DNA of 63,964 bases, counting the filler, from Basidiobolus ranarum (taxonomy: Eukaryota), in assembly GCA_040143965.1 (NCBI GenBank). It is 3 parts of 3 records of this genome, joined end to end, with 100 filler letters (N's around TTAATTAATTAA, not from the genome) between each part and the next. Parts side by side here need not be neighbours in the genome. Positions count along the whole stretch, not along the records: positions 47,568 to 63,964 come from JASJQH010000343.1; 2 more parts are not named here. One strand, 5' to 3'. The translations under genes were made by a program, and so were the position numbers. Within the stretch, counting starts at the first letter, position 1. The number at the start of each line of letters is the position of its first letter. Of the stretch, positions 23,750-63,964 are shown piece by piece. Under the pieces are notes generated by a model. That model saw only the letters and a list, made by a program, of their open reading frames with translations. It did not search any database and was not told the DNA's origin.

Positions 23750-23849
23750 NNNNNNNNNNNNNNNNNNNNNNNNNNNNNNNNNNNNNNNNNNNNTTAATTA
23801 ATTAANNNNNNNNNNNNNNNNNNNNNNNNNNNNNNNNNNNNNNNNNNNN
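23750..23849. other. Assembly gap (100 nt) with TTAATTAATTAA spacer
   Basis: N-run with a PacI-like six-frame stop linker at 23794-23805. Confidence 0.97.
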
Positions 23850-25131: not shown

Positions 25132-28100
25132 CTACTTTCGAGATCGTGTGGTTCGTCGAATCGGTCCTTCAGTGGCGGCTTCTATTCCTCCATTCTCTTC
25201 AACTTGTCTCCAGAATTCGTAAAGTGGCTGGCGGTCGACAGTGTGAATGAAATATTCGCCTCCATTGTTCGTCCAGCTAACTGATTCACTCCAGTATGGA
25301 TACCGTTGAACAGTTAAAATACTCTCAACGCTAGCAGCATTTCGAAGTGTGATTTTGTGATCGAGAGGAACATAACTTCTAAGCGTTATAATCTTAGTCC
25401 CTTCCTTTAAATCCAGAAAGAGTTGGAGAAGACGCTGATTAAGATCACTGTCGAAAGCATAGTTGTTGACCAGAACAACATCAACTCGTCGTAAAATGTC
25501 AACAATTTCGGGGGATTCTAGGAAGTCGCCATGAAGTATGTCAACATGTCCATGTGAAATATGGTAATAGCTAATAATTGTCTAAAAGTAAGCAAATAGC
25601 ACATGAAAACACACTTGTATAATTGGTAAGAACTTACTTCATTCGAGCCTTAAACTCCTTTAGTTGGAGTTTGGCAAGGCGAGCAGGAATATCCATGATT
25701 TCAATCCCATGCGACTCGCATCCAGTCTGGGCGGCGACTTGCAATACTACATTCCCTATACCACAACCCATGTCGAGGAAAACATGGTTGGATTGAATTC
25801 CAGTCCTCTCAATGAATTCTGATATTAAAATCGGGTTGATTTCACCATATACTTGGTTAGAGAAAGCTATAAAACGCAATTCGTCAATACTTTACCTGAC
25901 AAAATTGATTGATTTAATCTTAGCGTACCTTCATATTCTTTAAGACTGTCAGCTTGTGGAGCAACAGTTCGACTATATACTTGATATAAAATATGGTTGC
26001 TAAGCTCGATTGAAGGAACTTTAATTCGCTTAGCACATGCTTGTATTTGACCAGACTCTTTGAACTTTCGCATCAATACGTTAAAATCGCGAACAGCCGA
26101 CACAAATTCTAAACCCTCTTTTCTATTCCTAGCCTTCTTAAGATTACGAATTATACCTTCCTTTTCGTCACCAAAGTGAGAAGCCAGATTCTCAGAAAGC
26201 ATCTGTTCCACAATCACCTCAACTGTAGAAATGAGATCAGTAATGGGGTTATATTCCTCTTTATCCTCTTCGTCACGAGTTCCTGGTTTAATAGGAATCA
26301 TCAATGGATAACTACAGAACGAGAAATAAGAAATGCTGAGCAATCGTGGATAAATATAATATGGTATACTTACACTTCTTTTACACCTTCAGCAGGAAGT
26401 TCTAAAATAATTCTAGGGAATGAATTCTTCATTTTTGCTAAACTGTCAAAGCTCTTGTCTTTAAAGTCTAATGAAAGAAAAATTGTGTTAAAAACATGAT
26501 CAGAAGATATACACATGTAGATCTTAGCATACATTTTCTGTACGTTTCAATTGCATCTCGGACGGCCTTTTCAGCTCCACGTAACACTGGCAAGGACCTG
26601 GAGGTATCTTGGCTAGAAGGTTTTCGATTTGCTTTATATTGCTCGCTAGTAGATATGAGTTCTGAAGGTACTTGCAACTCATCTTTGCGTTCAGACTTAG
26701 GGATACTCTGTTTAGGCTTCAAAGTATCTCTTTTATACGATGTTACAGCTTTTTCTTCATGTAAGTCGGAATTGGGGGAAATCAAATGTCTTCTTTCTTT
26801 TTTTTCCACAATTGGTACGTTGGAATCGTTTTTAAAAGCTTGATCTTGCTTTATCTCCTGATCTTCACTAGGAGTCTCTAATAAAGGACTGCCAGCAGAG
26901 CTGAGTGATGCTGAGTGACGTCTTACACCGTTGAGATGTAATTGAGTGTCGGAATCCTGTCTTTTAGTGTCATCATACTCGGTCGAAACTATAGAAGGTG
27001 ACTTATTTCCTTTCCAATCAACAGTTTCTCTCTGCTTGTCGCCTTCAACATTTGCTACAATGTTTCCGTAGGTAGAACTTTCAACAATGGAGATGTGCGA
27101 GTTGGATGAAGTTGTTTTATCATGCTCAGATGAAGATTCATGGGGTGAAGGTATCGTATCACCTATTGATGCATTGAGTGTTGTGGCTTCAGTTTTCGAG
27201 GAATCTTCGTCTGGTATCGAGCTTACAAGCGCTCCTTTAGCTTCACATGACGAAATGGCTAGTTTTGATTCAATAGGACCGAATGAAGCATCATTCTCCC
27301 CTATCTGACTCGCTAACTCATCGAAGTTTTGTTGTGAAACTTCCGATTGAGTAATAGAAGACTCCTCTAGCAAAGGAGTTATTAGGTCTTGTTCCGTTGA
27401 ACTGACCTCCAATGTAGAAATCGGTTTCTCCACAAAGCTAATTGGGGGCTGTGTTTGGTTTGTTAAGGCTCCAGGATTTGACTTGGTTAAGTCTGTGCTA
27501 GATGTTCTTTCTTGAGAGTGACATACTTTAGGAAGAGACTCTGCGCCACTCGAGGAGGTTTCTCCTATATCATTAACATGCTCACAATTTGTTTCGGTGG
27601 TTTTACTGTTTTCTCGCGTATTTTGAACTTTACTCTCGTCAGGCGTTGATACATTATCGCTCCCTCTTTCATAAATTTTCCCTTCATCTGATTCGCGAAT
27701 GACTCTCCTTAGCTTGTCTTTAGACGAGATATTATCTTCGATATTACGCTTGGATTTGTTAGGGGGTTTGGGAATATTTTCATCGCGAACAGTATCCACA
27801 GGATCGGGAAGTCGTGATGTAGAGTAATCACTATCTCTTGTAGATGTACTGTATCTCTTAACTCGTGATTGCGGCGTCTTCTCTTTGCTTTCATTCTTCA
27901 GAGGCTGCAGAACCTCCACAAGTTTTTTCTTGACTACGACTTTGTATTGATCTTTTCGATTAAAATAGGCAGCAAGTGGATCTTCACGAGATATGTTAAC
28001 TGGGGAAACTACTTGCGTAAAAGTTTTGATCTCAGTAACAACTTTTTGTTTGGGTGACTCAAGTTTTTGCTTCAATATGGTAGGACTTTCAGACCTTTCT

Positions 28101-28825
28101 GGTCGATTCGTTGGCTGTACCGTATTTCTCCTGGAAGGGGTGGGCGATTTAGTAACTCTAGTATTGAGAGTTCGATCATCTACATTTGCTCTCTGCTTCG
28201 AAATTGTGTTCCTTCCTGGTATGTCTTCCTGTTTATTGGAAATACTTTTGGAAGTGACGCCTAGGCGAAAACTACGTTCGTGACGCGACCGCTTGGCGTC
28301 AATTAAGTCCTTGGTTTCAGCTACAGAGGGGGATCTTTCGGCGCGCTTCAATTTGGGTGATTTCTCAAGTGGCACCAGAAACTTTTGCTTTTTGTCAAGA
28401 CTTGAGGTATTCCGATGAGGTATAGAGCTAGCTGGCTTACTCTTGAAATATACTCCACTTTTTGAAGAGTCGTGTAAAGAAATGGGGAGCTCAGTGGAGT
28501 GGTTCTTTTTAATGTGGTGCTTAGGAGAACTTCTCTTAGACTCGAAGCTTAAACTTGATCTCTCAATCTCAGGCTTAGGTCGTCTCTCAGGTGTGAAAGT
28601 TTCAGAGGAATTAGAAGGTGATGCTTCTATAGATTGGATTGCATAAGCTTCTTTAGAGTTTGCATTCGGGTTCTTTGAAGAGAGCTTGTTTGATGGGTTT
28701 AACCCAAGAGAATTCATAAATTTATTATATGCAGAGTCTACATTCTTGGAAGCGTTAGTAAAGGAAGTATTCCCTTTTTTATTAAAATCGTTCGGTTTCA
28801 TATAGGCTTCTTTCACGGCGTTCAT
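25132..28825 (-). CDS. DOT1: Histone H3K79 methyltransferase Dot1 with very long low-complexity N-terminus, 5 exons
   Basis: Motifs QVYSRTV, AFSNQVYGEI, FLDMGCGIGNVVLQVAA, GIEI, VNNYAF, SVSWT. Confidence 0.93.
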
Positions 28826-30937
28826 ATCACAGTAAATACATGAAGGGTGTGTTGAGGTTCAGAGAAGTGGACAAGGTGAAAGAAGTATAAGTACAGAATT
28901 TACAATTAAGAGATCTCTAATCACTAATAAACTGATTAAATTACTCCAAGGATAGCCTATCAAATGAATGATGAAATTTTGACTAGAGAACATTATCGAA
29001 ATCACAGAATTCCTTAATTAGACGATCTGAGCATTGAACCATGTTTTATCGAAGGCCTCCTTATTTACTCTGCTGTGTACTGCCGCAATCCCCTTTAATT
29101 TCAAACGTGCCACAATCGTTCGAATATGGATAATTCTAACCATCAATCGTTGGTCAAACGGCTCTTGCACTTTATAGTGAAGAGCCTGTGTTGGTCAAAG
29201 AAGTAAGCGATAGATTCTCAAGAAGTATCAATTGTTTAGCAGCCGTCCATCAAATATTTGCATATTAAATCAATAGTCACAGAGCATCAATGCCAGTCCT
29301 ATCTTCGTCATGTATAGTGGGTTATCGTCCCTGTAAAATTTTGGGTGTCAACAGATTACTTTGTCCAGTTACGTCTCAAACAGTGTTCACTTCTGATCTA
29401 CGAATATTTAGTCATAGTAGGGCGATCTTGTGTTAAATATTTCTATAGTGTACACTGGTATATTAGAAATGTAACTGACCAACTGGATTTGGTAGTTTGC
29501 CCCGGGTCACTTTTAGAATGAGGTGAGATCATGCAAATTTACATGAGTCATTATTGTAAAAAGCCATTGTAGCTATATATTCATGGTTATTTCAACTCCA
29601 ATCGATAAGACCAAACGCGTCCTTGGTTGGCTTGTACTTTTATACACAGCACTGGTTCTAAGCTCCTAGAGACGCCAGTATTTACTTATTTACTACATAA
29701 TTCCAAGCTATGTTGAACGGTTATTATAAGTAGATCACTGCGTGTCGGTTTTATTAAAACCCTAAACGGACTAGGATAAGAATAACTAAGATAAGAGATG
29801 ATCTGACTGTTCTTTAAGTCATCAAACCTTATGCCAATTGTAGCTAACTTCAAAGATATCGCAAATGGAACATCCTTCCCCACTGTAGACTCTACTGTAT
29901 ATATGTGAGTTGCCGTAGTTCAATATAAGTAATAGTTTCATTAAGGTGGAAGAGCTAAGGTGATTCAGAATCTTAGAAGACTAGATGAGGTGCATGCCTT
30001 AACTTGGTGCGAGAAACAAGGCATACGAACGTTAGCGAGCATATTTCATATTGTTAAGGATTCTCTTGAATGTACAAAATAGGTATGGATGGTGAATGGT
30101 CCAGAAGACGGGGAGATTTACTGAAGAAGCTATAAGCAAGACTTCAAAGCACATAGAATGACACCAATCACACTAGTGTGTTTACCAACAAAATTGCAGT
30201 GGATATTTGATGAAGCAATATCAAAATAGCATCACTAATTCGTAAAATTGACGATTATTTGAGTGCCAATGATTTTGACTGATCATTATTAAAAATGGCT
30301 CAGAGTTCACGAGAAGTCCATTATTGGTCTAATGATAAGGGAGTTTGATTGGCCAGATTATTAATAATCCAATGGACAAGTGCGCGGTTGACCGAAGTTG
30401 CTCCACCGGTAACATTCAGCTTGGATTGTATCGATAGGCTTGGATATAGCCAAAGTGATTCTGGTCTTAGCCACACCATATATCTGCCCATCCTTTGCAC
30501 GTGACATTATGGAGTTTAGTAGGGTGGCATTTGTTTGTAATACAAATTCAAACAAATAGTTTCCGACACTCTGGTTATCACAACATATGTCTGCTAGACC
30601 CCTCAATGTAACTGCTCTCGTTACGTTGTTTTCTTTCACGGGATTTAGTGCACCAACAGTTCATAAGATTTGACCGTTTATTAGAAAGGTGTTAAGAGAG
30701 ATATATCTTTACCAACAAATACCTTCTTCAGCAGCTATAATGGTTCCAGAATTGGGAATAAACCCATCAATGATCTCATAAATTAAGATATTGAGTGCTA
30801 ATCAGTTACTTAATTGGAGCTGTGTTCATCTTATTGTTGCAGCCATTATAAACCAGGGAAGGTTCCCACGGCAAAATCATATAAATTCCAACATCTCTTG
30901 GAAAATCTGTTTGTTACATTTACTATTCTCTGCTTCA

Positions 30938-34337: not shown

Positions 34338-36860
34338 TTAGAATGTAAAGCATTTTTGAAGGTCGTATCCTAGTTTTTCTAGATTAGGGATGCAAGTAAA
34401 CTTTAACATCGGTGGTGGTCCACTCATTAGTACTACTGTGTCCTCTGCTGGTTTAGGTAAATGGTTTCGAATCATCTCATAGGTAATGAATCCAGTACTG
34501 TAAGGCCACTCTGACAAATATGTTTCGTCAATCGTATACCATACTTTAAGTTGCTCGGGATGCTTATCTGATAATCTTTCAAGTTCATCTCTAAGCAGTA
34601 TATCTTCTTCACTTTTATTAGCAAACAAAAGAGATATCTTGGTTTTGTCAGAAGGATCATTTAAAATCGCTCGAATCAATTGTAGCATAGGCGTAAGTCC
34701 AGTTCCACCGGCAATCATAGCAAAGTTTTTTGCTTTCCCTTTTATGTGCTTACGCTCAACGCGATAGCATCCATGGCCATCATAGTTGAACTCCCCCATG
34801 GGTCCTTTGACTTCCACTGTATCTCCGATCTTGAGTGAGTCCAAGTACTGTGAAAACTTACCTCCATTTGGATATTTTGGATGGGTCCCTTTAAAGTATA
34901 TTTTAACAGCCAGGTCAAGGTGTCCAAGATCCGCTTCAGTGGAAACTGGCGTATACGCACGAACAGTAGTTCTTCCATTTATTTTAGCACGGAGTAAAAT
35001 ATGCTTTCCAAGCGGAAGACCCATGCGATGCTTAGGTGACGGTAAACCAAGGCGAAAAAGACGTGTGTCCTTATTAAGTATAATCTTCTCAATGAGTGGG
35101 AAAGCATTATATTTCAATGGAGAAAGTGCAACTAATTCATGTGGTTCGGATATCTCCAAAATTGGCTCATAGGGATTAGCATCTGCAAGATGGCCAACAC
35201 AGTAAGGTTCTAACATCTCAATAGCTCCAGGTGAGTGAATGTCTCCAAATTCTCGGGTACAGTCTGTCCCTGCTTTGGCAGCTATGGTCTCCACGCCGCC
35301 AGGATGAATCTTCATAAACTCGGTACAGTCGTATACATACCCATATATAGACACCCAAGCGTCGTCTATCTTATAGTGACGGGCAACATCTTCAGCTGTG
35401 AATATTCTTGGTTTAGGTATAATACATTTCTTTTTGATCGTAGCTTCACTCTCGAAACCATCAACTAGATCGATGCTGCGTTTTCTTTTCTGATTTATCG
35501 TCTGCTCTAACCAACCCGAATTATCCACTTGTGAAATAGGATGTAGAAACCTGATCATTTGATCTTGATGTCGATCTATTTCAATGGCAAGTTTGTATGT
35601 TTGGCGTGGCCTTCTAATGGATGGTGGTGTGGACCCCAAAGAATAAGCACGAATACATATTTCTTCTACATTTGCAAGGTCTGATGTTAGGACAGTGAAA
35701 GACCAGAAGGCCCAGGCCCAGCACTTATTGGTATTGGGGGAGCACTGCTGGGGAAAAATGCTGCAAGCATGCCAGCTTTGACCTTGATCAAAAGATACTT
35801 CCACCACGGTAACTTGATTTCCGCCCCCAGCAAATGCATACCCTCGAAGAGTACAAGCTCCTTGAGTCATGTGTACAACCTCTTTGTGTTCAGGAATGCA
35901 TAAGGTTGCAGTTACTGAGAGTTCATTGATAACGGAATCTTCATCTTTAGAAATCTCTCCAGACATCAATGTTGAGCTTCGACCTTCATATTTGTGATAC
36001 CAATTCTCGCTTTCCTTATTTGAAATGAAAATACGTTTGAGCCATTTCACCATGCGTCCACCACTATATCCTGGAGTGATGACACGTAAAGGGAATCCAT
36101 GATCTGGAGTCAATCGTTCTCCATTCATCTCATATGCTAGAAGGATTTCTTGGTTAGGATCCAGACAGTGCACAAGAGATATACTAGTGCCATAGGAGCC
36201 ATTTGGTAGTTGGTCACACCCTTCAAAATGAACATACCAAGATTCCTTATGCGATAGTACATTGATTTCACAAGACTCTAGTATATCCTTTAAGTATACT
36301 CCACCCCACATCGCCGTACTAGCTGCCACTGTTTTCCAAATGCCATTTTGTGAACTATGTGTCCGCATTTCATCAGTTCGGTTACTAGAGCAGGCAAGGG
36401 TGACAGGGATTTCTGTTTTTTGAAAGGAGGCTATTTCGTCCATAGTAAAAGTTTTCGATACACCAACTAGCCTAGAGAAATAAACGATATTTTAGCGCGT
36501 TGTTTCACCTCAATCAAGTATTCAATAGAAATGAGCTTTCTACGTTTAAAAGAATACATGACAATTAAGGCCATAAGTAAACCATTTATACCCAAAGACC
36601 TCCAAAGTGTGTGTATCCCAATCAAGTCTTGGTACATAACCATGATTTCTAACATAATGTAAAGCAGTTGAAGTTATATAGCCCTCTTGGTAAAGGCGTT
36701 TTAACGGGGGCTCTGCGTTGAACGGGTAATTTCCAGTGGCCCGTATTAACGACGGGTGGCGAGGAATCCAGTTGTCGGCAGTATCTTTATCTCGCTCGTC
36801 ATAAACTAATTCTTTATCTGCTTCAAATTGGGGTACTGCTTTTGAAGAAGTCAAACCCAT
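34338..36860 (-). CDS. Nitrate reductase-like enzyme (Moco, dimerisation, cytochrome b5, FAD and NAD(P)H domains), 2 exons
   Basis: Motifs PFNAEPP, HYVRNHG, DHGFPLR, GGRMVKWL, GYAFAGGG, HPGG, RAYTP, IAGGTGLTP. Intron at about 36472-36592. Confidence 0.9.
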
Positions 36861-47467: not shown

Positions 47468-47567
47468 NNNNNNNNNNNNNNNNNNNNNNNNNNNNNNNNN
47501 NNNNNNNNNNNTTAATTAATTAANNNNNNNNNNNNNNNNNNNNNNNNNNNNNNNNNNNNNNNNNNNN
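47468..47567. other. Assembly gap (100 nt) with TTAATTAATTAA spacer
   Basis: N-run with linker at 47512-47523. Confidence 0.97.
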
Positions 47568-48792
47568 GGAGCTTTAGGATCACAATTACGAATACCTTCA
47601 GCGCAAAGGTCATCCTGAGGACCCTCATACAAGAACTCTACTCTGTACTTTTGGGCAGTGACAGGGGAGGGAAGATGAATGACTATCATCTCCAATAAGG
47701 CATCGGCAGCGGGTAAGAACTTACGCATAACAACTTTAAGAAGAGCCTTGCCTTCCAAATCCTTCTCGTCAGACTTCAATGGTACTTCTAACTTCTCCAA
47801 CATAGAAGTGGTTTGTTCTTTCTTGAAGTTCATGATGGAATCAAAAAGCTTGAAGATAGGATCCAAAATGAACATACAGAAAGCACGCTCAAGTGGCTTG
47901 CCATCGGCATCAGTTCCCTTGCTGGTCCATTTACGAGTGGCAGGATTAAAGTAGTTCTCTCCCCAAAGCTTGGTCATCATCTTGTCCTTATCAACACCGA
48001 ATTTCTTAGCATAACGCTGAGCAAATTGTCTCAAGGTGAAACCCCAACCGTGAAGGCCAGAACCGAAAGCAACGGTACCACGCTCTGGGTAAACCTGGAC
48101 ATCACCGAGAACAGGGTCAAAGTAGGTAGAGATAATAACATTGACGGATTCGATAGTACGAAGGAAAGAAGTGTACAAATCTTCCTTGGTGGATTGCAAT
48201 TCAAGCAAAGCACGATCAACCTTGTTGATAATAATAACAGGCTTGATACGTTCAGTAAGAGCTTGACGTAAGACAGTCTCTGTTTGAACAGAAACACCAG
48301 AAACACAATCAACCACGACCAAAGCACCATCGGTAACACGAAGGGCGGCAGTGACTTCGGAGGAGAAATCGACGTGACCAGGAGAATCGATAAGATTGAT
48401 TAAGAACTCATTACCATCAGTCTTCTGCTTAACATCGCCAAGGTCATCCTTGGGAAGCTCAAAGAACATGGAAATTGCAGTAGACTTGATAGTAATGCAA
48501 CGATCTTGTTCATCTTGACGAGTATCAGTGAAGCGAGTCTCACCAGCTCTGGCAGAAGAAATAATACCAGCCTTGGAGACAAGGGAATCAGTAAGAGTAG
48601 ATTTACCATGATCGACGTGAGCAATAACAGACATATTACGAATATTCGTAATTTTGTCCATGAGGCCACGAATTTGATCTAAAGAAATTCACATATTGGT
48701 TAGCGAAACACTCCAGCATGTCTTTTCATCAACCTAAACATCTCTAATGAAGGCATGGAGAGAATATACGTACCAATAGTGAAGTTAACCAT
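47568..48792 (-). CDS. EFT2: Translation elongation factor 2, 5' part (truncated by gap)
   Basis: MVNFTI exon, [30 protein letters not shown]. Confidence 0.97.
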
Positions 48793-51700
48793 TTTTACTG
48801 GACACTAGAGGGAGATGTAAGTTGAAGTAGAGACTTTGTAAGTCAATATATGTCCAGGTGAGAGAGCAGTGGCGTTCCTCTCTCAGTACTTATACTCCTT
48901 CGTCATTGCCATTCACCCTGAATTCCTTTGCCATATAGGAATGTAAATCGAACCTCAGAAAGTCAGAATCGTAATGGGAAAAAAGACCAATGAAGCCAAT
49001 GAACGAACTACACAGCTGTAGTACACAAAATAGGAATAGGGATCAATATAAGGGGGTTCACTCGATTTCATATAACTCAATGTATGGCATTACTGTAATG
49101 CTGAATATTTGAATGTCTTCAGAACTGCTGCGAGATGGCGTTTAACAAGTCACATGTCAAATGAATTGAAATCCTTAATTAAACTAAGTGCTGATGCTCT
49201 TTATCACCACTGCAAGTAATGTTGGCAAGCGTATCATGCTGATACTTCAATAAGTTCAGGATTATGACCTCGAGGGAGCCCAGGTTCCATTAAATTTTGG
49301 GGAAGGGCCGTTGGGGATAGGGGCAACCCGAAAAGTCGATGATAAGTGGGGCCTAGGGTAGCCCACTTTCCCACTGGCAAAACTATATTGTTACGTGCAG
49401 ATCTTGCTTCTTGAAGTAGCATCATACTTGGGTAGATATGAGTCAATCATTAGTGCACAAGAAACCTGTCACTTGGAGCTAGGATTCATGGAAACCAATT
49501 GCGACTGCTATCATTGGTTTCCACCAGAAGGAATGGGAATATTACGTTTGGAACGTTATAATGTGGAACACGGGGAGGGCATAATTTATCATTGTATTAC
49601 TGCAACCCGTTGTGGGACAAGTGCAAGTCTCAAAATACATTTATTGTGAGTAGAATTCATTTGAAATCAGCTGCAGTAAAAGCAATTTAACAGGTAAAAC
49701 TTGACTCACCCATAGAGAGGCTTGGGATGCTTACGAATTGTCTGGAAAATATCCACTTTTGAAATTGATGGCAATCTATATGGAGTACGTCATGAGGCAG
49801 GGTAGAAAGCCAAGGCGACATTCCACCTCTGCTTGGAAATACAGAAATGACCATGGCGATGCAGGAAGCCGCTATCCAATGTCCCCAAAATGCTGCCCTA
49901 CTTCTTCAGTGAACTTGGAAGGCTTATCAACCTCAAGGCATTCTCGAAGAATCACATCAGTAGATTGTTGACCATGTATCGATAATATCCACATAGCTAT
50001 TCCGTCAATACCCTTCTTTGATGAAGTATGAAACAAATTATACCTAATACGTTATACAGCCACTTTGATCACTGAATATCCTCTCGTTTTGTGACTGGAT
50101 TACCCAATAGTTCGTTGCATCTCGTTTGCATCAGCTTGATTTAGGATTCAGTGTACAGCCTTTAATAAGCCATATTGGGCCGAATTGGATCCATCATTGC
50201 GGTGATGATCCTCACCCTCATTGGATGAATCCGATATCTGCATTACGTTTATTGCTATAAAGCGTAAATGTGGCAGCTAAAAGCCCACATCCACGCAGTA
50301 GTCCAATTTGCCAGTCACCAATAAATCTTTGACTCTTTGGTTGGCAGTTGTTCGGACTTGCGCCACATTTTTGGCATTCTTTCATAGAAACCATGTCACT
50401 AAACATGAGAGCCTCTACACAGCCTTAATGTTCTTCATAACACTACTGAGCCATCTTCCAATTAGGAGAGCGGAGCTGTTATCACAAAGTCATACTAGCG
50501 CTTGAAGCAGTGTACTCAATCTCGCACTACCGGTTGGTGTTCATCAAAGATATAACACTTCCATTTGAGCTTGAATTGAAAGCAGAGTATCACTGAGTTG
50601 ACTTATCTGTAACAGACTAGTTGGCCTTTCATTGGCAAGACACATGGAAGTTAGATAATGAAAATTATGCGTGAAATCAACATCTATCGGTGCTGTTAAT
50701 ATTATTAATGAACATACTGTGTGATCAAAATAACTTGGCTGTAGCTTGTCTACTTGGGTTATTACATCCCGGAGACGAATAAATTTGAAACACAAGCGGC
50801 TCAACATTACTATATGTCGCCAATCAGCTACTTTATCCTGGGCCAATATGTACATTCCAGTACAGAGCTTCTAGATTCTAGATCGAGAAAACCCAAGAAT
50901 CGTGTATATTCTAATTCACGTGCTACTGTCACTGCTAATTCTATCAAGCCATTATATTATTGTACGCCGTGGCTTAGTTGGTAATACCTACGGGTTTACG
51001 TACTCACCAACCCACGAAGCTGCCTTTTGATACTACTAGGTAAGCAGTAACAGGTTTAGTGGTTTGCAAGCTCTCAGAAGTCAAGCTTGAATGATACAAC
51101 TAATTGACCCAGGCCTCAAAAGGATAAGTAGCATATTGTTATCTTTCAATAGTGCGAAAAATTGACTATCTGAGAGTAACACTTGTGCGTTGGTAAAAGA
51201 ACCTTGACAACCGATTTCATCAGCTCTGGTATCACAGTTATAACGAGGAGACCTTGTTCTGATTAACTTCTGCGGTGTAAGGGCTTTCCTTTCACACCAA
51301 GATACAACCATTAGTTGAAGTATCTCATTAAATTTACTTCACCGTCTAAGCAATCCGCAGTTCGGAACCATCTTTTTTTATCGGTACCTCTTTCTGACAG
51401 AAACTCTTGATTGCAGCAACAATTTTCAAACATTCATTGAATTTGCATGGATACAATCCCTCACACGAGACACTATTTGCGTTCATGTTTGACAATCAAT
51501 CAAGACATGTAAAGGCATCCTGAGTTGCTAATTTAGTGACAATCCTCGCCAAGATTTTATTTCCTCAATATATTTATTTAATTGTTTACATTTACGAAAT
51601 CATTAGCCATCTACTAATCAAATTTGAGTAACGATAATTATGTGCTTGAAATGGAATCTACGATTGCGAATATAGCGGGATCCTCTCCGTGAGATCTAGG

Positions 51701-53137
51701 CACTCCTAGGTAGAGTGTGAAATCTAACGAGCAAGCTAATTCCTACAAGGCTTATTTTTGAATTACGAATCAGGGCCGGCAATGACAATGATGTTGCTTA
51801 AGAATAGAAACTTCCTTTGTACAATGCTCTGACCCGCAATTGATTCATCTCAGCCTTGGTGGTTCTTGGTATCACTGATTAAATGAGATATCTAACATAC
51901 TTATGCCAGATCAGATCTGCGGCTATCCGACGGTGGCTCATCTTTGGATCAATTGAATGGCACTTTGGGCCTTGAATTATTGGGATACTTTTAATCAATA
52001 TAAATTATACACCATTGTCCAGAGCTGTCTAGATCCATATAAAAATCCATAAAAACAACCGCTACTATAAGCAGGTTCTTCAGTATGATACACCCCCAAG
52101 AACAGTACTAGTGATACTCAGAAACGATCAGATCATCCTGCTCCAGGATCTTATGAGGATATCTGTGATTCATTGTCTGTGTATACAATCATATCAAATT
52201 CGTTAATAGACCAGTGAAGATAGCTAATCATCACCAAAACGCAGTACAATAATGGCCTATACTTGTAGAAAACACCGTGACCAGCATTCTCGGCTGTCTT
52301 CTTTGGTTTCTAGAAAGTGGGAATAGTACCACGACGACAAGAGTGGCTTAAATAGTAAGATAGATTAGTGAACAAAGTTATGTATAACAGCATAGAAGTG
52401 ATGGAGCCTTTCGATGATCCCTAAAAGGAGAACTAATTAAACCCTCCAGGTAGTTTCTCAGATTCCGATGCCTCTCAGTCTCTTTTTGTAATTAACTGAC
52501 ATGAACTAACATGACAACTGGGGCAGGTGGTGGTATTAATAATGGTTGCGAGATGGTGATTCTTTATGCTGTATAGGCTTAGAGGTTAAATACTTTTTGG
52601 TAAGCAAAATGGCTTTTCCAGAGGGAACAGTAACACCTACAACATGGTTGTCAGCCAAGCCTGAATACCTCAAAGAGCTCTAATAATCAAACTGTTAGAT
52701 TCAGTGGTAATATAAACTCCGTTACCTCTATTAAGAGGGCTAGATCTGTCAGTAGGATCAGCTGACATAATGAATACCTACTACTTGGTTGAAGATTAAT
52801 ATGGTTACTTCGTCCGAATTATCCAAAATAATACAATCCTACAAGTTAGTTCTGAAAAGGCAGTTAACTGGGTGGCTCGATATAGTCATTCAACTCCTTA
52901 TTTTGAATCCAAGTAAAGAATATGGATATGAATATCTGATGCTTGTATAGGATTAAACAGCAATATTTAGTATCAGAAATAGCATTGGAATCAATGTGAA
53001 TGAAGATCCATCAACAGTTAGTCTATTTATTTTCACAGCACATGTATGTAACAGACGAATGATCAAAGGTGGATGAATGAGTAATTAAAACAGATGTAGG
53101 CCATCGCCTTGAAATACATTAGGCTTCACAGCTCGTT

Positions 53138-54735
53138 TCAAGCCTCTAACAATGTATCCTCTGCATCATAATTCTCATTAAGGAGACGGTACAAGTATGA
53201 AGGCGGATGACCACCGCTAAATTCGAGAAAAATGTCAGTTCGTGTTTAGACTTAAAGATTATGAAACAAAAACCTACACATTGGTAATGAACAAACTAAC
53301 AAGCTCCGGAGCAACATAATCAAAGTAAGGGTTAACCAAGTCAATCTTGTCAATTAAATCACCTAAATACTGGCATAAGTCTCGCGAAAAGTAATAAATA
53401 TCCGTTCATAATGAGTCCAACCTTCTTCATATTGCAAAACCGGGTTTGGCGAGACACACATATTGAGTGTATCAGGATCGTATGGATACTGTGGAGACAG
53501 TTTATACAAGCCAGTGCAAACTACAACTGGGGTACAATGGTGCTTAGCTGCAGTGGTGATCGTTTGACTACCAGCAACGGCGATTAAGCCACCGTTGGCA
53601 AGCACTTATATTGACGGTTAGCTTTGATAATCACCGATTACATTTTATACAAAATAGAAATTACCAGCATGTGTGCCCAAGATAACCTTGTTCACTCTCG
53701 AGAGAACGGCGAAGATAGCCGAATCTGGTATAACTGTTGTTTCGATCCCAGCTAACGCAAGAGAACGAGCCATCTCATGTCCGTGGTACCTAAGAGCCTA
53801 ATCGTAAGTATCAACACAAAAATTGAGGTAATTCCATATGAACTAGCAACGTACAAAGGTGCAGTTTCGGCCACAATAACCTGGAATTTGCGTTTCTTGG
53901 CTGCGGTCTTAAGGAATGTCTCAACAGTCTTGGATTTGCCGCAAGTCATAATGATTTCACTGTAACCAAATTAATAATTATCTATTTGAGTAGAATTAGG
54001 ATGCATGTTTTTACTTCGAGTGAATGTGCTCTAGTGCCTGTCCAGAGATATTAACGTAAATGTTCTCCAGTTCTTCAACGATTTCTTGAATACCTTGAAT
54101 AATTTCTGGCTTAAGAGGTATTTGGAATTAAGGGAAATTCTTGCTGGTCACGAAATTTCATAAAAACCACATTCAAAAAAGGATATTAAAATTATTTGCG
54201 GAGCTAGTAGGTTCTTTCTGGAAATTCCCCAAGAGGTTGTACATTGAAGAGGAAGAGGTAAACTGAGGAGCTGGTCTAGGTCCTGGTGTGTTTTGAGAAT
54301 CATAATTCCCATTCTCTTCTTGTCCAGAAAAAGTGCTGTTTTCTTCACGAATAAGACGCAACACTCTACGGACAATATTACCAATAGCAAGTTCTATATC
54401 AAACTAATTAATTAGAAATTTGTACTAAGGGATTCCAAACATTGCAGTACCTTGAGGTTGAGCTGCTACTAAACGCTTTCCAACAGATTTAACAGTCTCA
54501 AGTAGTACATCTACATTGTTCCAGCGACTGATAGAAACTACTTGTCTTAGCAATATAGCAGTTTCGACAGAGACCTGCCAAGAACCTATGACTTGTCTAA
54601 TATTTTATTCACTCTATTAGCAAAGGGGAGTTCAATTCAACTTGTATGTTCTGCTCATATATACCTTCTCTTAAGTCTAGCGATAAAATGATCTATCTGA
54701 GCGTTGAGGTCTTTGGGTGCGATCATTGTAGCCAT
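53138..54735 (-). CDS. GCD7: Translation initiation factor eIF2B beta subunit, 9 exons
   Basis: [63 protein letters not shown]. Confidence 0.93.
54118..54186 (-). other. U12-type AT-AC intron (69 nt) in eIF2B-beta
   Basis: 5' site ATATCCTTT, branch TTTCCCTTAAT, 3' end AC. Removal restores the frame ...[14 protein letters not shown]. Confidence 0.88.
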
Positions 54736-54810
54736 TGTATAGTCGAACTACTGATTAGGCAACTATAACCACTTCGACTCGGTTCGATTGCTGAGCTTGG
54801 AGAAGAAAAA

Positions 54811-54873
54811 TTAGGGTCAGGGGGTAGTATCCAAGATAATTTCGGAGCTAGGGCATTCGATCCCTAACCCTAA
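54811..54873. promoter_or_regulatory. Inverted telomere-like (TTAGGG) boxes upstream of eIF2B-beta
   Basis: TTAGGGTCAGGG ... CTAGGG ... CCCTAACCCTAA, 76-138 bp upstream of the ATG. Confidence 0.4.
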
Positions 54874-55831
54874 AATCGATTGACGCTCAGGTAATGACTC
54901 TACATGGAATGAATTAAGGTCTCAAAGGCTTTTTAAAAAAAATTGGGTGCTCTTCATATGAGCGGGAGATTTTAAGCGGGATAATGTATACTCATAAGAT
55001 CTGGTCCACTCATTTTCATATTAACGGTCTCTACTTAGACTTTAAGCATATATCAAGATCTGAGATTAATAATAGCTGGATTATATTTTTGGAAAATACA
55101 GTCTAAATAATTTTAAAGGCAACCACCATCACTCAAGAAATCAGTAAACTTTTAGAGGCTTCTCTTTGAGCATTGGGGTCGACACTGAACTGATAATGAA
55201 CAAAACTTCTAATGGTTTAATTATGTTGACGACTTCTACGACTCAGAATTTGGATTATTTATCTCGGATTGATGTTTTGTAGAACGCGTGCAGTAGAAGT
55301 GTCTTCAAGGTGTATACATTTAACTTCAACTTATTGAACACACATCTGTCTTCGGTAGATTGTTATGGTGGTCGGTTTCGCATTATCTGCTACGTCAAAT
55401 ATTTGATACATAGTCTACGAAATATTACACTGTTAAATTGCAGGCATTTTCATACATAATCGTCGACAATCGTGTTGCCGAAATTCGCGAATTGAACTCA
55501 ATATCTATAGCACGAACAAATCATCAGCACACAATTTTTCTATCTAGAGAGCTTTACAATCGGCAAGGATATATTACAATACTACACTGTGTGCAGGTGA
55601 AATTCATTACGTAGTGAATGATTCACCACTGTTAGCGAATTAGATCATCTACTAAGAATCCACTTGATTTGACCAAGTTCCATTATTAGCCTAATTGGAA
55701 TGTTGGATTGAATCAGAGCCAGTGGCAGGCCATTCTGGGGTTCCCTGATAAAAAATTCTCATCTGTGATAGCATTATATATTCACACTAACCAATGTCAA
55801 GTGAACATTTATCACTTTAAACCTTCTTAAA

Positions 55832-56080
55832 ATGTCTCAAGAATTCAGTGAACAAGACCAACGTGAATTAGCTCAATTCCTCGAAGGAGAGAACGCAAAG
55901 GCTAAACTTCAACAAAGTATTCATACTTTTGCTGACCTCTGCTGGGACAAATGCATTACCAAAGTCGGTAACAAGCTCGACCGCTCTGAGGAAGCCTGTC
56001 TCACCAACTGTGTCGACCGTTTCCTTGATACCTCCCTTTTGATTGTTAGGAATCTTGAGGAGAAGAGAAGTGCTTTTTAA
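55832..56080 (+). CDS. TIM8: Mitochondrial small Tim chaperone Tim8
   Basis: Twin CX3C: LCWDKC ... CLTNCVDRFLDT. Confidence 0.93.
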   Translation: MSQEFSEQDQRELAQFLEGENAKAKLQQSIHTFADLCWDKCITKVGNKLDRSEEACLTNCVDRFLDTSLLIVRNLEEKRSAF

Positions 56081-57099
56081 TTGTTTTCCGAACGATCAAT
56101 ATTATGTATGTTCTTGGCACATCATTTATCACTATCTTTAGGGCTTCTCCTTTAGAGCCTAAAGCCACAATTAGCATTTCCAATAGACATAAATGAAAAG
56201 CATGTTACTCTTGATATTGAATCTTCCAAAATTATTTACTACGTATATATTATAAGTTGACTATTTCTGAATTCCGGTATATGTTTTACTATGAGTATCC
56301 AAATGCCGTGTTGTTAAGATCGTAGATAGGCATGGTTCTTCAAACCTGGTCAAATACTCACAGGTCAATTCGAAAGGATTCTTTGACTGTACTTGAGTGT
56401 GAATGTGACTCGCTTCTATTAAAAGTAGCAAAGAGAAAATTTTCACTTTACTCTTTGTTACCTAATAATCATTTTTACACCCAGATTGAACTTTAGTAGT
56501 ACCCACCAGTTATGAAAGCCAGAGGTGTCGGATCTATTCAAATCATTACCTAAGTCTGTCTTCCTTGTATTACAACCTTATGTCAATTTCGACTCTCTAT
56601 TCTTCGCCCCAATGCACGCTATATATTCACACTAATTGTAGCGTACTTATTGTCAAGCATCCACTTTCCATTATAACTATATCCTATCGACGACAATATG
56701 CATGACCAATATGTATATTACATTTAATTATCAACCAGAATGCTATGTAATCATAATATATTCCAGATACCTCGAGTTTCAATAACGATATATCGAGTCT
56801 GGGTCAAAAACATTAGATACACGATGTTGATGTTTTTTCATTGGCAATACAAAGAAGTTAACAATATATTGCGAATATAAGAGTTAATTTACTAGCGAAG
56901 AAAACCATCTATTAGTGTACATGTTAAGAATAATAGAACCAAGTAACTAATAGATATGTTGAGGTAGCCATTTAGAAGGTACATTTTGCTAAGTATTGGT
57001 CTAGTAAGTTTTTTGAAGGCTCTTCCTCCTGATCATCAACTTGTACTTAACATACTACCAAGATGAAGTATGAAACCCTAGCTTATTAATGTTCCATTT

Positions 57100-57428
57100 G
57101 TTAAAGTATGTGGGAGCCTGTTGGAAGTGGTTTGGAGAATTAGAGAAATTGGTGGTTTTCACTTATTGATTTATTGAGTAGAAAGTTGACATTTATAGTT
57201 TTATCAAGAATTAAACAAATTAACGTGTAGAATGTGTTAAGGAAGGTCCCACAAACATGTGTGCAAAGTTTGGGGCTTCTAGCACAAGTTACCAAAATCT
57301 ATATATCTGAGAACTTCTAAGTAAATTCCTCATGAGAATAATGGATAATATCTTAGTTCAATATAAGATAACTAAGTACTAAGCTATATATGACTATATA
57401 GGTGTTTAGGCAATGCTAATTTCAACAC
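57100..57428 (+). repeat. Dispersed repeat, copy 2 (inverted copy of 6742-7068)
   Basis: See copy 1. Confidence 0.9.
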
Positions 57429-57459
57429 CATTACCATTGATAAAGTGGAAGTAGTGAAT

Positions 57460-57702
57460 TCAAGAAATTAGTGTCAGTAAAATGAAATCATATCCAAGGA
57501 CTATGGGCATAGAACAAGGGAATAGGGAAAGTTGAATTTGTAATTGTAATATATGTTTCCAGGGTTTTTCCACATCTCCCTCTTTATATGGATGGGACAT
57601 ACTGGAGCCTGTACTTGCTCTATCTACTATATACCGTCCTTTTATTGGGTTAACTTGGAACTCAATGGGTTTTAGAGTACCGGCTTTGTCCTCATATCGC
57701 AT
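57460..57702 (-). mobile_element. Possible Ty3/Gypsy aspartic protease remnant
   Basis: ...LQIQLSLFPCSMPIVLGYDFIL resembles the retropepsin C-terminal ILGxDFL motif, and it adjoins a dispersed repeat. Confidence 0.3.
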
Positions 57703-59879
57703 GATAACTCTACCACAACTGAAGCCTCAGTTGTAGCAAACCTGACAAAAACACTAAGAGGTAAGCCTCATGTATAAACCAACAAAACAAGGTCCATTGC
57801 GCAACCTGTTCAGTACCTGTTTTCGCCTTGAATCGAACTACAATTGTTTGAGTGATGTTGCTGAGTTTAACTAACTCCAACCCATCAAAGCTTGCTGTTA
57901 ATTTTTCTATCGTTCAAGTGAGAATATTCCTTACCTAAAAGTGGAGCGATTATTCGATTTGAAGGAGCAACTGACCCCTCCTCTGAAAACTTAAGATAAT
58001 GTTTTTCTTTTAAAGAATTGCTTCGTAAGTAACTTTTGTTCAATTTATTTCTGTATCAATTACTTCTACTACTTTTGTATCTAAAGTACCATTTCTAGAT
58101 GCCCTTAACGCTATCTAGCCTTCCCAGCCAACTCCACCAACTAGGGTGGGATATCCGTTTGAAACTGGCTCTGTGTAACATTGTGGTGACATTTTCATTT
58201 GTCCCTATAAACTTGACCAAATATGTTGTCAAAAATAGGTTCTGGAGAATGGTATGCTTTGTAGGGGTCAGAGTTAGTACCAAACTCCCTTATGGTCATG
58301 ATACAGAGATATACATTCTTCACGCCGCCAAATCTCTTGAATAAGCTTTTACTTGGTTTATAGTACCATATTCATGATGAATATTCTTAACCACTAGTAA
58401 CGTCTTGGTAGTTTTATATCTATCGCTCAGACCACAGCCTCTACCTCCCTGCCCATATCTACGGCCTTTATTACTCAACTATGGACTTTCTAGCTTGGGT
58501 GCTTCACCACCTCAATTTTTGATTATGTCATTGATGGCCTGTAACTCTGTATGTCTATAAGCATATGCTTCAGAGCTACAAAAGTCACATCTGGAGTAAC
58601 GTCATAAGAGTTTTCAGACAATAGATGAGGTAAGTCAAGCTCTGGAATATTTCTTGATATTTTTAGTATGTGCCGGACCTCGCCTGAGATCGCATCGTTT
58701 CCTCTAGTTCTCTTGAGATTGATGACACTCTCTTCATTTAGAAACGGAGAAGTGAACTAGTTAAACTCCGCAGAAAATAATATATAATAAGTGAAAATCA
58801 GAACCACTAAGTCACCATAGAAACTGTTAAATCAAATTGGGTAAGTTGATGTTTTGAAACGAAATAAAAAGGATATTTGCGAAAGTTTCGCCTTCTTTTC
58901 CTTTATTTAGAATTGGATAAAAAAAAGTAATTGGATAAAAAAGAAAGAAATTTCTTTAAGCACTTTCTTCACCTTCAGTTAGGAAACCACACACTTGCTC
59001 TAATTAAACCAACTCCTCTCTAGTTCAATGACTGAGTAATTCTTTAAACTCTTCAAATGAACTTAATAGAGATAGTTGTACATGTATGAACGCCACTGAG
59101 CCTATGGGGAGGATTTCACTTAGTGCATCATTTGCCACAATTCTCAAGTACGTAACTAACTTTGATCAGAAATGGACTTCTGACAGTTAAATTAGGAGAC
59201 TTCCAGCAAGAATGACATTTCCAAAAACAAGGAACAGTTTCTCAAAACAGGGTGTAAACTATTGAGATCTCTCAATCTATTTTGGATATATTTCTACACA
59301 ATATCACTAATAGAAAGATTTGCTTTCGGGATATAATGATAAGAGATTACAATCATGCGTATCCAACTTACCATTTGAAACTGGACGCAATAAGTTCTGA
59401 TCATCATATTCGAAACTTTTGAAGACGAAAGTTCTGGAATATGGGACTAGACTCTACCTTCAACATTATTTTCTCAGATTATCCAAAGCCGGCCAAACCG
59501 GAAACGCTTAGCTTCGTGGCTAATTGTAAGTACTATGAAGTGGCCTCACATTCAGCATTGCTATATTGTCAAAAAGAAAACTACAAGTTGCTTCCTTGAT
59601 TTATCATCATGCTATCTTCAGTAAGATCTTCTGACGATTGGCCATGTTTGTCATGTCTCCTATCCTTGGTAACACACAACGGACAATATTATATCATGTG
59701 TCTTGAACGATATATTACATGGCCTGCATATTATTGACAATCACGTACCAAATGTTTAGCAAAAGAAGAGACAGGGAGTTTTATATTTGTTAGTATTTAT
59801 CGTATTTATTAGTATTTTATGTATAGATAAATGCGGAGCCTAACATATGTTGGGATGGAATGACAATCATTCGAGTCTA

Positions 59880-60359
59880 TTAGTTCTTGGGAGCTTCCTT
59901 GTAACTGACAACAGCTTCTTCACCCATGGCGGCGATGACAGTAACGAGCAATTCCTTGCCTTCGTTGAATTCTTCTTCCATCTTGTTACCCAAGTCACCT
60001 TCAGGTTGCTTGACATCATCCTTCATGGAACCGTCAGCCATCATCAAACTGAGGAAACCACCATCAATATCGATGAGGGAGAATTCGTTACGGGAAACGT
60101 TGGGGACATCCATGTTATGGGTGGAAGGAGAAAGATCTTCAAGCTTGTTACCAGTGAAGATATCAATGGCAACCAACTTAACCTTGGCGTGACCGTGCTT
60201 ACCAGGCTTGGAGTTAGACATATCAACGATGTTGCAAGGACGTCCCTTGATGAGAACGTGTCCGTTCTTACGAAGAGCGGAACATTGCATGGGGTAGGTA
60301 AGAGAAGCACCGGAGGAGGCGGACTCGAAGGTGTGGTTATGTTGTTCGTCGTCAGACAT
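59880..60359 (-). CDS. Translation factor eIF5A with divergent hypusine loop; 5'-UTR intron at about 60367-60446
   Basis: [43 protein letters not shown]. Confidence 0.95.
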
Positions 60360-61738
60360 GTTAAGCTAGAAATAGAGTAAAGTAAGTAACAATGAAGTTG
60401 CAACCTTTACAAAGCAAAGCACTGATGTGATTGCTTCAACACGTACCTTAGTAGAGGAAGATATGAAAGTAGAATATCCAACGAAGTAGAAAGGGATCAG
60501 GGTTGGGTTTTTATTATGTGGCTACAGGGGAGAATCCATTATTTTGCGCAAACTTTTTTTCGCCTTGATACTAAGGCCAGGGTATGGACCATTGCTCATA
60601 GTAAATTTTCCACTTTTTTGCACCTCATCGCTTTCCTTTTGTTGTTCGACGTATTGGAACTGGCAAATCAGATTCTTTCCTGAAAAAAAAGGATCCCTAA
60701 CTTTCATCTATCTAAACCAATTAAGAAGTGCAGAAATTCTATTGGCCAAAATGTAGTCACATCAGAGACAGTAATTGGTGCAGACATGATTGTAATCTTC
60801 AATTCTGAAGGATTCTCCGTGAGTATGCGTGTTACTCCATAGGAGCCCAAAAAGGTATCCTCCGATTCATTCATACATTGTGAACCGTAGGAGCTCAGAC
60901 TACGTTGCTTCCTAAACAGATAGCGTGGAGGTTCAGCGATTGATAGATCATATACGAAATCCATCCATTTCCAGCGAGCCATAGAAATGCCATCACGAAT
61001 CGTTCTGACTCAACAAATCTGTTGTCCTAGTGTCCCTTTTTTCTTGAAATCCGATTAGGAAATGAAAGCTTTGAGCAGAAAAAAAATGGGTTTTTCTTTT
61101 TGGCTCCATCGGATTTGTTGATTTCTTATTAAGTTCCACCCCATCAGCATCACCATCTACATCTGCATTTCACTATCTATGCCAAGCCTCGCTAGATGCC
61201 AGTCTGTCTCATTTAATCACCAGGAGCTAGTGAAATAGAAGACGAACCACACGGTCAGGTACTATTCCGAGGCTTGCTAATCAAGGTATTGCAGGGAACT
61301 TCGCCTTCTGAACTTCCTCTTGTCTCGTTCTTGCGAGAACTGCCAAAATGTTGAATACGTTTTATGATTCGATCAAATTTCAATTTCATTCATGTGAATT
61401 GCAAAATATCCCCAAAAGCCTAGAGCAGCTTCAATTTTATTATGTACAACATAATCTGTTGGCTGGAGGAATTCGAAAGCATTTGTTTTCCTAAGATAGG
61501 TAAACCCAAGAGACCGTATGATTCAGTAATCTACAGGCCTTTGAAAATGGATTGTTCAGAGCTAGTTCAAAAGAAAAATACAAACAAAATCACAAGAAAA
61601 GGGAAAATGTCTAAATATGAAATTTGGTAAATGATTGTGAATTACAACTGTATGAGCTTGAATGTCAGAAGGGAATGAGTATGATTGAACCACTCCTTGA
61701 AATATGGTATAGAATCATATATGCTTTCGGAAATAAAT

Positions 61739-63964
61739 CTATACAGACGGTGTGGGCGTTTCAGGGTTGTTTAACTCTTCTTCAATCTCTCTGCTGAAAT
61801 CATCCAAGAAGTCTTCATCTTCATCCAAATCCCCATTAATCTCACTATGAGCCACTTGCTCATCTTTGCTTTCGCCAGTATCATCTGTTCCAACGTCTGA
61901 AATATGTCGTTCCTCAGCAGATTCTGAATGAATCTCGAGGTTGTCATCTTCCGTTAAACTGACAGTGTTTTGGAGGGGGGAGGCATGAGCACGAAGTGCA
62001 CGCATGCGTTTGATCCCGTTTCTCTCTGACTCTTCATTGTTCTCAAATTCTGCAGAGCTAGGGTCAAGTAAATCGGCGGATTTACGTTTTCGAAGTACAA
62101 AGTTGTCATCACCATCATCGTCTCTCTCAGAATCCACTTCCGACGTGGCAGTATTCAAATCTGAATCATCGAGAAATTCCTCCACTTCACGGGCCGCATC
62201 TCCCCAGTCCATACGCAACATATGTTCCTTCATTTCATTGTCATCAATCAGCGATTGATCGTCATCAATACCCTCACCGGTCCCATTAACTGACGTTTGA
62301 CCGCCCGATTCGAAAACTTCTTCATCAGATTGGAACATAGGGTTCTGGGTACTCCCTGAGGGTGTATCTTCAATCAAATAAAATTTCTCATCCTGGCGCT
62401 CCCAGCGAGAAATCGAGTCGAACAGCCTGATAAAAGGAATTATTATTCAATTGCAGCAATGTTTAAAATAACGTTGGAAGTACCATTCAGGTCTAACAAT
62501 AAATACATTGGCCATATTACGGCCATGATTTACTTTAGCTGTTCCAGGCTAGTGCGACCAATTAGTAGATTATCATGATACGTTAAAGCGAAGGCAAAAC
62601 TCACCTTGCCAGCAACTATGTGGGTAACCTGATTATTCAAGTTTGCCGAGCATTGAGCCCCAAAGCTACGGGCTAAGCACCAAATGTCTGATCTATGAAG
62701 ATAATACTAGTGAATCATAGACCTTGAGAAGGATCTGTAATAGAGTTGACATACCTTGTGGGATCATAACCTAGCGGAATCACGCTGCTAAACACGATGT
62801 TTGTGTTTTTGAAGACACGGGCTTTCATCGATGGAATGATGTTCTAATAAATTCGGATGCAATAGTTCAATGATCTGCTTGTAAAGTAAATGTGATTATA
62901 TCGAGTTTACTTTAACATCTGGAGACTCCTGTCGATCTGCATCGCTTTCATTGTGTTCAATTAACTCATAGTCCTTGTAGAATTTACTGTGAATATCTTG
63001 TAAGACCTATATAATTGAAAGTCAGTATGGTCATCTATGACGATTAAAAGAGCGTTAGATTGCCTTGAGTAGCATAGAAAGCTCCTTATCATTATCGATT
63101 AAAATTGGTTTTTCTTCTGCAAGCTCCTGTTGCTGCTGAAGTTGTTGTAGTGGCTTGTTCGCTTTTTGACTCTCCATGATTTCATTTTGCTCTAGTTCCT
63201 GTTGGGCTAAAACCGCTCCATCGGCGTTTTCTATAGATTCACCATTAGGTTATACGTCACGATACTATCATGAGATTTAGGTATGTTACCATCCCCACCT
63301 TTATTCGATATCTTCTGTCCAACAGCTGCTGGAGACGGATTATTAGTGGGTTTTACTGACAGGGTCTTCTACGATGGTTTATGATGTTAGACTAACACAG
63401 GTAAGGTTCATGATTGTGAAACCAACATCTACCTCTTGTTTCGGAAGAAATGAGCCATTGATATCTCCAATGCCAACAAAGAAATCGTCTGGAGTGATAC
63501 ATTAGGTAAGTGATGTTCCATTAGCATTCTTGGTACCGTTACAAGGACTTACATGGGTTTACTTTTATTAGGTTAGGAGACCACTCCCAGACGTCTCCAC
63601 GATCATCAATTATCACCACCATTGAAGTATCGCATGGGAAAAGACGCTGTATAGTTTTCTGGGTCATACCTAGATTATACTGGTCAGTCATAAATGCAAG
63701 AGTTATCAAGAGAAGATAGGATGTCCTACTTCCACTCTCATCGCGAGATAGAATTCTTTCTTTGAAAAACTCCTGGTCAGGATCAATAACAGTGGCAACT
63801 GCTGATGCATAGTTGCGTGTACCCATTGTGTAGATATGGAGTTCGTATATTTTGGTGATTTCCTTCAGAAACTCTCTTAAGCCTGGGCTGATGAGATGTT
63901 AGTTGTTATTGATCCGTTAGTAAACATTGAGCATTAGTAAGTACCGTAGCTTGATGTAGTATAC
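61739..63964 (-). CDS. FCP1: RNA polymerase II CTD phosphatase Fcp1, 3' part (runs off window)
   Basis: YYIKLRPG, ELHIYTMGTRNYA, ILSRDESG, VVIIDDRGDVW, BRCT (VFSSVIP, THIVA, VRPEWLFDS), acidic tail. Confidence 0.93.
63007..63063 (-). other. GC-AG intron in FCP1
   Basis: CTC AAG|GCAATC...ATAG|GTC TTA. An in-frame TAA follows immediately and there is no GT before it. Confidence 0.75.

Follow-up and report, generated by a model that had tools for sequence, protein, structure and literature searches.

A probable U12-type AT-AC intron in one of two eIF2B-beta genes of the early-diverging fungus Basidiobolus ranarum

The closest described counterparts of the intron studied here are the minor introns of Basidiobolus meristosporus, of which the text of one study counts 249, corresponding to 0.554% of the introns of this species and to the highest density in fungi (PMC10639083), and the text of another 237 (PMC11347168). 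The latter source also describes the U11, U12 and U6atac snRNAs of B. meristosporus, together with a divergent U4atac that was recovered only at a lowered threshold (PMC11347168). Rhizophagus, with 205 such introns, is the other minor-intron-rich fungus; the same text gives zero minor introns found in Ascomycota and Basidiomycota, and describes AT-AC as the less common U12 subtype in most species (PMC10639083). Basidiobolus ranarum has 0 occurrences in the main text of that study. Outside the fungi, human EIF2B4, the gene for the delta subunit of eIF2B, is listed in the text of PMC6239176 as a U12-intron gene, and no link between EIF2B2 and a minor intron was found in the paper texts searched. 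As to the class itself, the text of PMC3584512 takes a highly conserved 5' splice site as its defining feature and adds a conserved branch site, the lack of a pyrimidine tract and an optimum of 11-13 nt between the branch point and the 3' end; according to the same text, AT-AC termini also occur outside the U12 type, and membership is decided by the 5' splice site together with the branch site.

Here, we describe an interval of 69 nt on the minus strand of a B. ranarum sequence of 63,964 nucleotides (the window, meaning the whole stretch of DNA that was analysed), which lies inside a gene for the beta subunit of the translation initiation factor eIF2B (GCD7/EIF2B2). The coding region (53138..54735, minus strand) can be assembled from nine exons, at 54735-54665, 54596-54451, 54393-54187, 54117-54015, 53959-53855, 53789-53665, 53604-53422, 53362-53278 and 53216-53138, and encodes 367 amino acids. 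Exon 3 is 207 nt long and closes with ...SSANNF and one further base, the first of a Thr codon, while the 103 nt of exon 4 begin with the last two bases of this codon and continue with LKPEIIQG... The interval between them, 54186..54118, is intron 3 of the gene. The remaining seven introns are AT-rich, 55-68 nt long and bounded by GT-AG, and their 5' ends are alike only in GT.

The identity of the gene rests on several searches. Exon 7 alone matched the Pfam family PF01008 (IF-2B family) with an E-value of 1.7e-10 and 41.1 bits for a cut-off of 22.4, the same family being precomputed for the Basidiobolus proteins P0011, P0003 and P0002, and a search with this exon retrieved Basidiobolus eIF2B-beta proteins at 90-92% identity. 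The full product is collinear with P0003 of B. ranarum (366 aa), with 332 of 366 residues identical (90.7%), and with P0002 of B. meristosporus (367 aa), with 333 identical residues out of 367. The subunit was assigned on P0003, the paralogue that shares 90.7% identity with the product of the window; it matched the beta chains of Schizosaccharomyces pombe (5b04 chain C, 4e-109), human (6caj chain C, 9e-98) and yeast (6i3m chain E, 1e-65), and the other eIF2B subunits at 4.5e-23 or weaker for delta and 4e-21 or weaker for alpha. The label "beta" therefore holds, the matches to beta chains being far better than those to delta and alpha chains and the protein also standing nearer to beta than to sugar-phosphate isomerases. 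Two eIF2B-beta proteins, about 90% identical, occur in each Basidiobolus species (P0011 and P0003 in B. ranarum, P0001 and P0002 in B. meristosporus), and these pairs are either paralogues or homeologues. B. ranarum is placed by the NCBI taxonomy in Basidiobolomycota, outside Dikarya.

We propose that 54186..54118 (minus strand) is very probably a true U12-type AT-AC intron, inserted in phase 1 in one of the two eIF2B-beta paralogues of B. ranarum. Its 5' end reads ATATCCTTT (54178..54186) and its 3' end AC (54118..54119), so that the termini are matched, AT with AC, and not mixed. The U12 consensus is RTATCCTT for the 5' splice site and TCCTTAAC/Y for the branch site. The 5' site of intron 3 agrees with the U12 consensus at 9 of 9 positions, and the branch-site motif CCCTTAAT (54127..54134) contains the core CCTTAAY exactly and departs from the consensus by a single mismatch, a C for T at position 1. 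The last base of TTTCCCTTAAT falls 9 nt short of the 3' end of the intron, and the two adenosines of TTAA, which are the candidate branch adenosines, are at -12 and -11 from its last base. The last 10 nt, TTCCAAATAC, include six pyrimidines, the longest run being of at most four, so there is no pyrimidine tract. All the features of the U12 type that could be tested are found in intron 3: the 5' site, the branch motif, the branch-to-3' distance, the absence of a tract and the termini.

The junction is equally well defined at the level of the protein. The last bases of exon 3, up to 54187, are ...TTT A, and exon 4 opens CT CTT AAG at 54117; the removal of the 69 nt creates the Thr codon of F-T-L-K and keeps the frame in phase 1. 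If the intron is retained, a stop is reached after four codons (...NNF NILF stop). A first-pass annotation of this DNA had given the same interval, letters and coordinates, all correct to the base when the minus strand was read again; the frame break that it placed between exons 3 and 4 corresponds to this stop, four codons into the interval, and the in-frame F-T-L-K that it expected after excision was reproduced, with the phase being 1. Its assignment of the gene to eIF2B-beta in an early-diverging, non-Dikarya host is borne out by the subunit matches (obtained on P0003) and by the taxonomy, and its U12-type AT-AC reading is supported by the anatomy described above, the phase, the collinearity with orthologues and the lack of a GT-AG alternative (see below).

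A search with exon 3 retrieved P0011, a protein of 258 aa named "GCD complex subunit gcd7 [Basidiobolus ranarum]" that is 100% identical over the exon. This protein is the public gene model of the locus and carries exactly the F-T-L-K junction. The junction has the same length in P0002 and P0003 as in the spliced product, and P0002, which reads S-T-L-K-P at this place, shares the one-residue junction of the product of the window. We aligned the product with 120 homologues, all the proteins retrieved except five shorter than 250 aa, and found the flanks of the junction conserved as [Y/F]-x-L-K-P-x-I-I-Q. Of the 120 sequences, 91 have the L, 84 the K, 76 the P and 109 the second I. Six of the homologues (P0008, P0042, P0067, P0085, P0103 and P0118) come from contigs that exceed the coding sequence by only 3-268 nt and are therefore intron-free; all six carry the motif and align to the product of the window with no gap. 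The gene models P0011, P0002 and P0003, which all carry the junction, and the ungapped alignment of the intron-free homologues lend indirect support to a predicted excision that joins 54187 to 54117.

The junction is also where gene models of other fungi are disturbed. We counted the models with at least two gaps in the nine junction columns of the 120-homologue alignment, using taxon groups drawn from source names, with two lineages checked in the taxonomy. Such gaps were found in 12 of 20 models of Glomeromycota (P0013, P0016, P0018, P0041, P0114, P0006, P0021, P0022, P0027, P0072, P0074 and P0075), in one of four of Basidiobolus (P0001, which is without 10 residues), in one of 81 of other named fungi (P0102 of Jimgerdemannia, Endogonales) and in none of the 15 remaining sequences. 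Within Glomeromycota, gaps at residues 139-144 affect 12 of the 20 models, versus 0 to 1 of 20 over residues 185-310, and among other sequences at most 1 of 96 has a gap at the junction; the junction is a specific deletion hot spot in the gene models of this group. Five of the 12 gapped models restart at Pro, which is what would be produced by a GT-AG predictor taking as its acceptor the AG in the Lys codon. We read the deletions as the trace left in these protein models by an intron of Glomeromycota that would be non-canonical, probably U12-type, and would lie at the homologous position; their occurrence exactly at the junction suggests that this U12 position may be old and conserved. The first-pass annotation had predicted that GT-AG gene predictors would mis-annotate the exon; this was not the case at the locus itself, where the junction of P0011 is correct, but it applies to the relatives, where one of the four models from Basidiobolus and 12 of the 20 from Glomeromycota are affected.

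Given how the minor spliceosome is established to work, the removal of intron 3 would proceed as follows. The U11/U12 di-snRNP would bind ATATCCTTT, the rigid 5' splice site, jointly with the branch motif CCCTTAAT, and one adenosine, at -11 or -12, would be bulged as the branch point. The U4atac/U6atac.U5 particle would then join and U6atac would displace U11 from the 5' splice site. The branch adenosine would attack this site, and two transesterifications would link 54187 to 54117, creating the Thr codon and restoring the conserved F-T-L-K-P stretch. Because the unspliced frame ends four codons into the intron, this copy of the gene would depend on minor splicing. In proposing this scheme, we infer that the intron is excised from the RNA, that its excision depends on U11, U12 and U6atac, and that these snRNAs are present in B. 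ranarum.

A different question is whether the intron does anything for the cell. Slow or conditional minor splicing of intron 3 might limit the supply of eIF2B-beta, and in this way tune translation initiation or the stress response, and the intron might be retained for this reason. The stop that follows four codons into a retained intron would make the output of this copy require minor splicing, in a trivial sense only; the junction errors in 12 of 20 Glomeromycota models hint at a U12 position kept for a long time, and human EIF2B4, whose product is a paralogue belonging to the protein family of eIF2B-beta, is among the genes listed with U12 introns (PMC6239176, as given in its text). Against such a role, a second eIF2B-beta paralogue, P0003, is present in the same species, and in the text of PMC10639083 the fungal data are said to favour neutral processes for most minor-intron retention and no cell-cycle-linked regulation is reported to have been found in Rhizophagus. 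We consider regulatory gating of this kind, the stronger reading of the first-pass annotation, unlikely. Bolder still would be the proposal that the U12 intron has been held at this position since before the split of Basidiobolus and Glomeromycota, the junction deletions in 12 of 20 Glomeromycota models and in P0102 of Endogonales being its footprint, and has survived the massive loss of minor introns in other fungi because the efficiency of minor splicing sets the supply of eIF2B-beta. If true, this would tie the activity of the minor spliceosome to translation initiation and to the stress response, but we regard it as decidedly unlikely. Most probably, intron 3 has simply been inherited as a relic that is neutral in function, and does not serve regulation.

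The strength of the splicing motifs had to be weighed against the length of the window. RTATCCTT, of which the 5' site of intron 3 is one match, occurs eight times, for 6.43 +/- 2.72 expected, a count attained in 30 of 100 shuffles, so no enrichment of this 5' octamer was found across the window. The composite motif, defined as the octamer followed within 300 nt by CCTTAAY placed 8-16 nt before AC or AG, occurs once, at intron 3. First-order Markov simulations of the window hold at least one such composite in 102 of 500 cases (mean 0.22). The pair of motifs alone is not beyond chance for 64 kb and is weak evidence; as the motifs are prone to arise by chance, splice sites fixed by homology were used in place of stand-alone motif statistics. 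When the motif frequencies are taken from the window itself, the chance of finding both motifs at the two sites fixed by homology is about 8e-8. The placement of the motifs at a homology-fixed donor and acceptor is beyond chance, and this is the decisive result.

The homology also bears on which pair of sites is used. We enumerated the candidate introns between exons 3 and 4 with GT-AG, GC-AG or AT-AC ends, a minimum length of 31 nt and an open frame kept, with donors from 54300 to 54121 and acceptors down to 54041. Among the 22 in-frame, stop-free candidates, 14 are AT-AC and eight GC-AG, and none is a GT-AG alternative that would keep the frame between the two exons. The proposed AT-AC pair ranks top, with scores of 423 for P0003, 423 for P0002 and 173 for the more distant P0008 (404, 412 and 170 for the runner-up), and it is the only one of the 22 to give a gapless alignment to the orthologues.

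One rival has the major spliceosome remove another interval, for example the GC-AG intron 54199..54110 (90 nt) that the first-pass annotation had named, the U12-like motifs being coincidental. This interval is in frame and stop-free, chance motif pairs turn up in about one-fifth of the simulated windows, and the five Glomeromycota models that restart at the equivalent Pro use the Lys-codon AG as acceptor. Yet its removal deletes seven residues, ANNFTLK, that include the conserved L (91/120) and K (84/120) and that intron-free homologues retain, and its product scores 380 and 389 against the orthologues, below the 423 and 423 of the AT-AC pair. GC donors normally need a strong consensus, and TCC|GCAAAT is a weak match to it. 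Removal of such an interval is thus very unlikely.

One might also suppose that this copy is a decaying paralogue, a pseudogene from which the interval is never removed, given that each species has two paralogues and that the public model of this copy has only 258 aa. The short model has another origin. P0011 ends where the GT-AG intron 6 (53605-53664, minus strand) was read through, ...GTHA being followed by GNFYFV and a stop, while the window contains exons 7-9 (53138-53604, minus strand) intact, and the conserved C-terminal 115 aa that they encode complete the product of 367 aa; since the model reads into intron 6, its shortening is a fault of the model and the DNA is sound. Against decay, moreover, all nine exons are open, all eight introns have intact ends, and the 367-aa product is 90.7% identical to P0003 and collinear with P0003 and P0002 over the full length, which leaves a pseudogene highly improbable. 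Finally, removal of the AT-AC intron by the major, U2-type spliceosome, which could be entertained insofar as the text of PMC3584512 has AT-AC termini occurring beyond U12-type introns, is hardly credible for a 5' site that equals the U12 consensus at 9/9 positions and differs from the 5' sites of the gene's own seven GT-AG introns, with a branch motif at 11-12 nt and neither a pyrimidine tract nor the U2-like 5' site and branch/pyrimidine region that would mark a U2-type AT-AC intron.

The window was also searched for a second U12-type intron. A relaxed scan gave 32 motif combinations, and among the eight short or best candidates that were checked for open frames, only 54186-54118 joins long frames in compatible phase. 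A candidate of 224 nt at 44099-43876 is in phase 0 and open on both sides, but its product is of low complexity. Rfam, run over the window with gathering scores and with E<=1, gave no match, hence no minor snRNA gene within the window, and ARAGORN found no tRNA in it.

As for its general content, the window consists of three joined segments (1-23749, 23850-47467 and 47568-63964), separated by two linkers of 100 nt (23750-23849 and 47468-47567) of the form N44-TTAATTAATTAA-N44, with stops in all six frames. An uninterrupted open frame of 717 aa at 34341-36491 (minus strand) has the full domain order of an assimilatory nitrate reductase, namely molybdopterin oxidoreductase, Mo-co dimerisation, cytochrome b5, FAD-binding and NAD-binding domains, and is intron-free, which is unusual for this genome. 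At 47573-48688 (minus strand), an EF-Tu-type GTP-binding domain (E = 6e-53) lies in an open frame that reaches the join at 47567, the end of the contig thus truncating the gene. On the same strand, an open frame at 20149-21273 has seryl-tRNA synthetase domains and one of 796 aa at 26471-28858 is rich in Ser, Lys and Glu; no Pfam family was found in the latter, whose product is probably a disordered protein. The frame at 13481-14170 (plus strand) has a Myb DNA-binding domain.

Taken alone, intron 3 is of little weight, being one more among the few hundred minor introns of Basidiobolus in a gene whose public model splices the junction correctly. Its class is known, the class has been described in Basidiobolus, and the public model already records the junction. 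It is nevertheless an AT-AC intron of textbook quality in a conserved single-domain gene, and would make a clean RT-PCR target for minor splicing in B. ranarum, which occasionally causes disease in people and animals. It also carries a warning for annotation, in that the models of Glomeromycota and of one Basidiobolus paralogue drop junction residues, as GT-AG-only prediction would. If Glomeromycota share the U12 position, the intron may serve as a lineage marker of minor-intron retention across early-diverging fungi.

Set against the known systems, intron 3 is like the minor introns of B. meristosporus in genus, class and short fungal size, and differs in the species, B. ranarum, the two being compared at the level of the protein junction. 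As Basidiobolus has already been published as the most minor-intron-rich fungus, the intron is sound but ordinary, and the surprise expressed in the first-pass annotation was overstated. With the AT-AC U12 introns of animals and plants it shares the rigid 5' site, the TCCTTAAC-like branch motif, the absence of a tract and the pairing of AT with AC, and its branch-to-3' distance falls in the 11-13 nt optimum or just beside it; it differs from them in being very short (69 nt) and in the C for T at position 1 of the branch motif. Human EIF2B4, as listed in the text of PMC6239176, and the eIF2B-beta gene have in common the PF01008 family, the complex and a minor intron, whereas the subunit differs. 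The solved eIF2B beta chains, for their part, are the best matches of P0003, the paralogue of the window's product, and Basidiobolus differs in having two paralogues per species.
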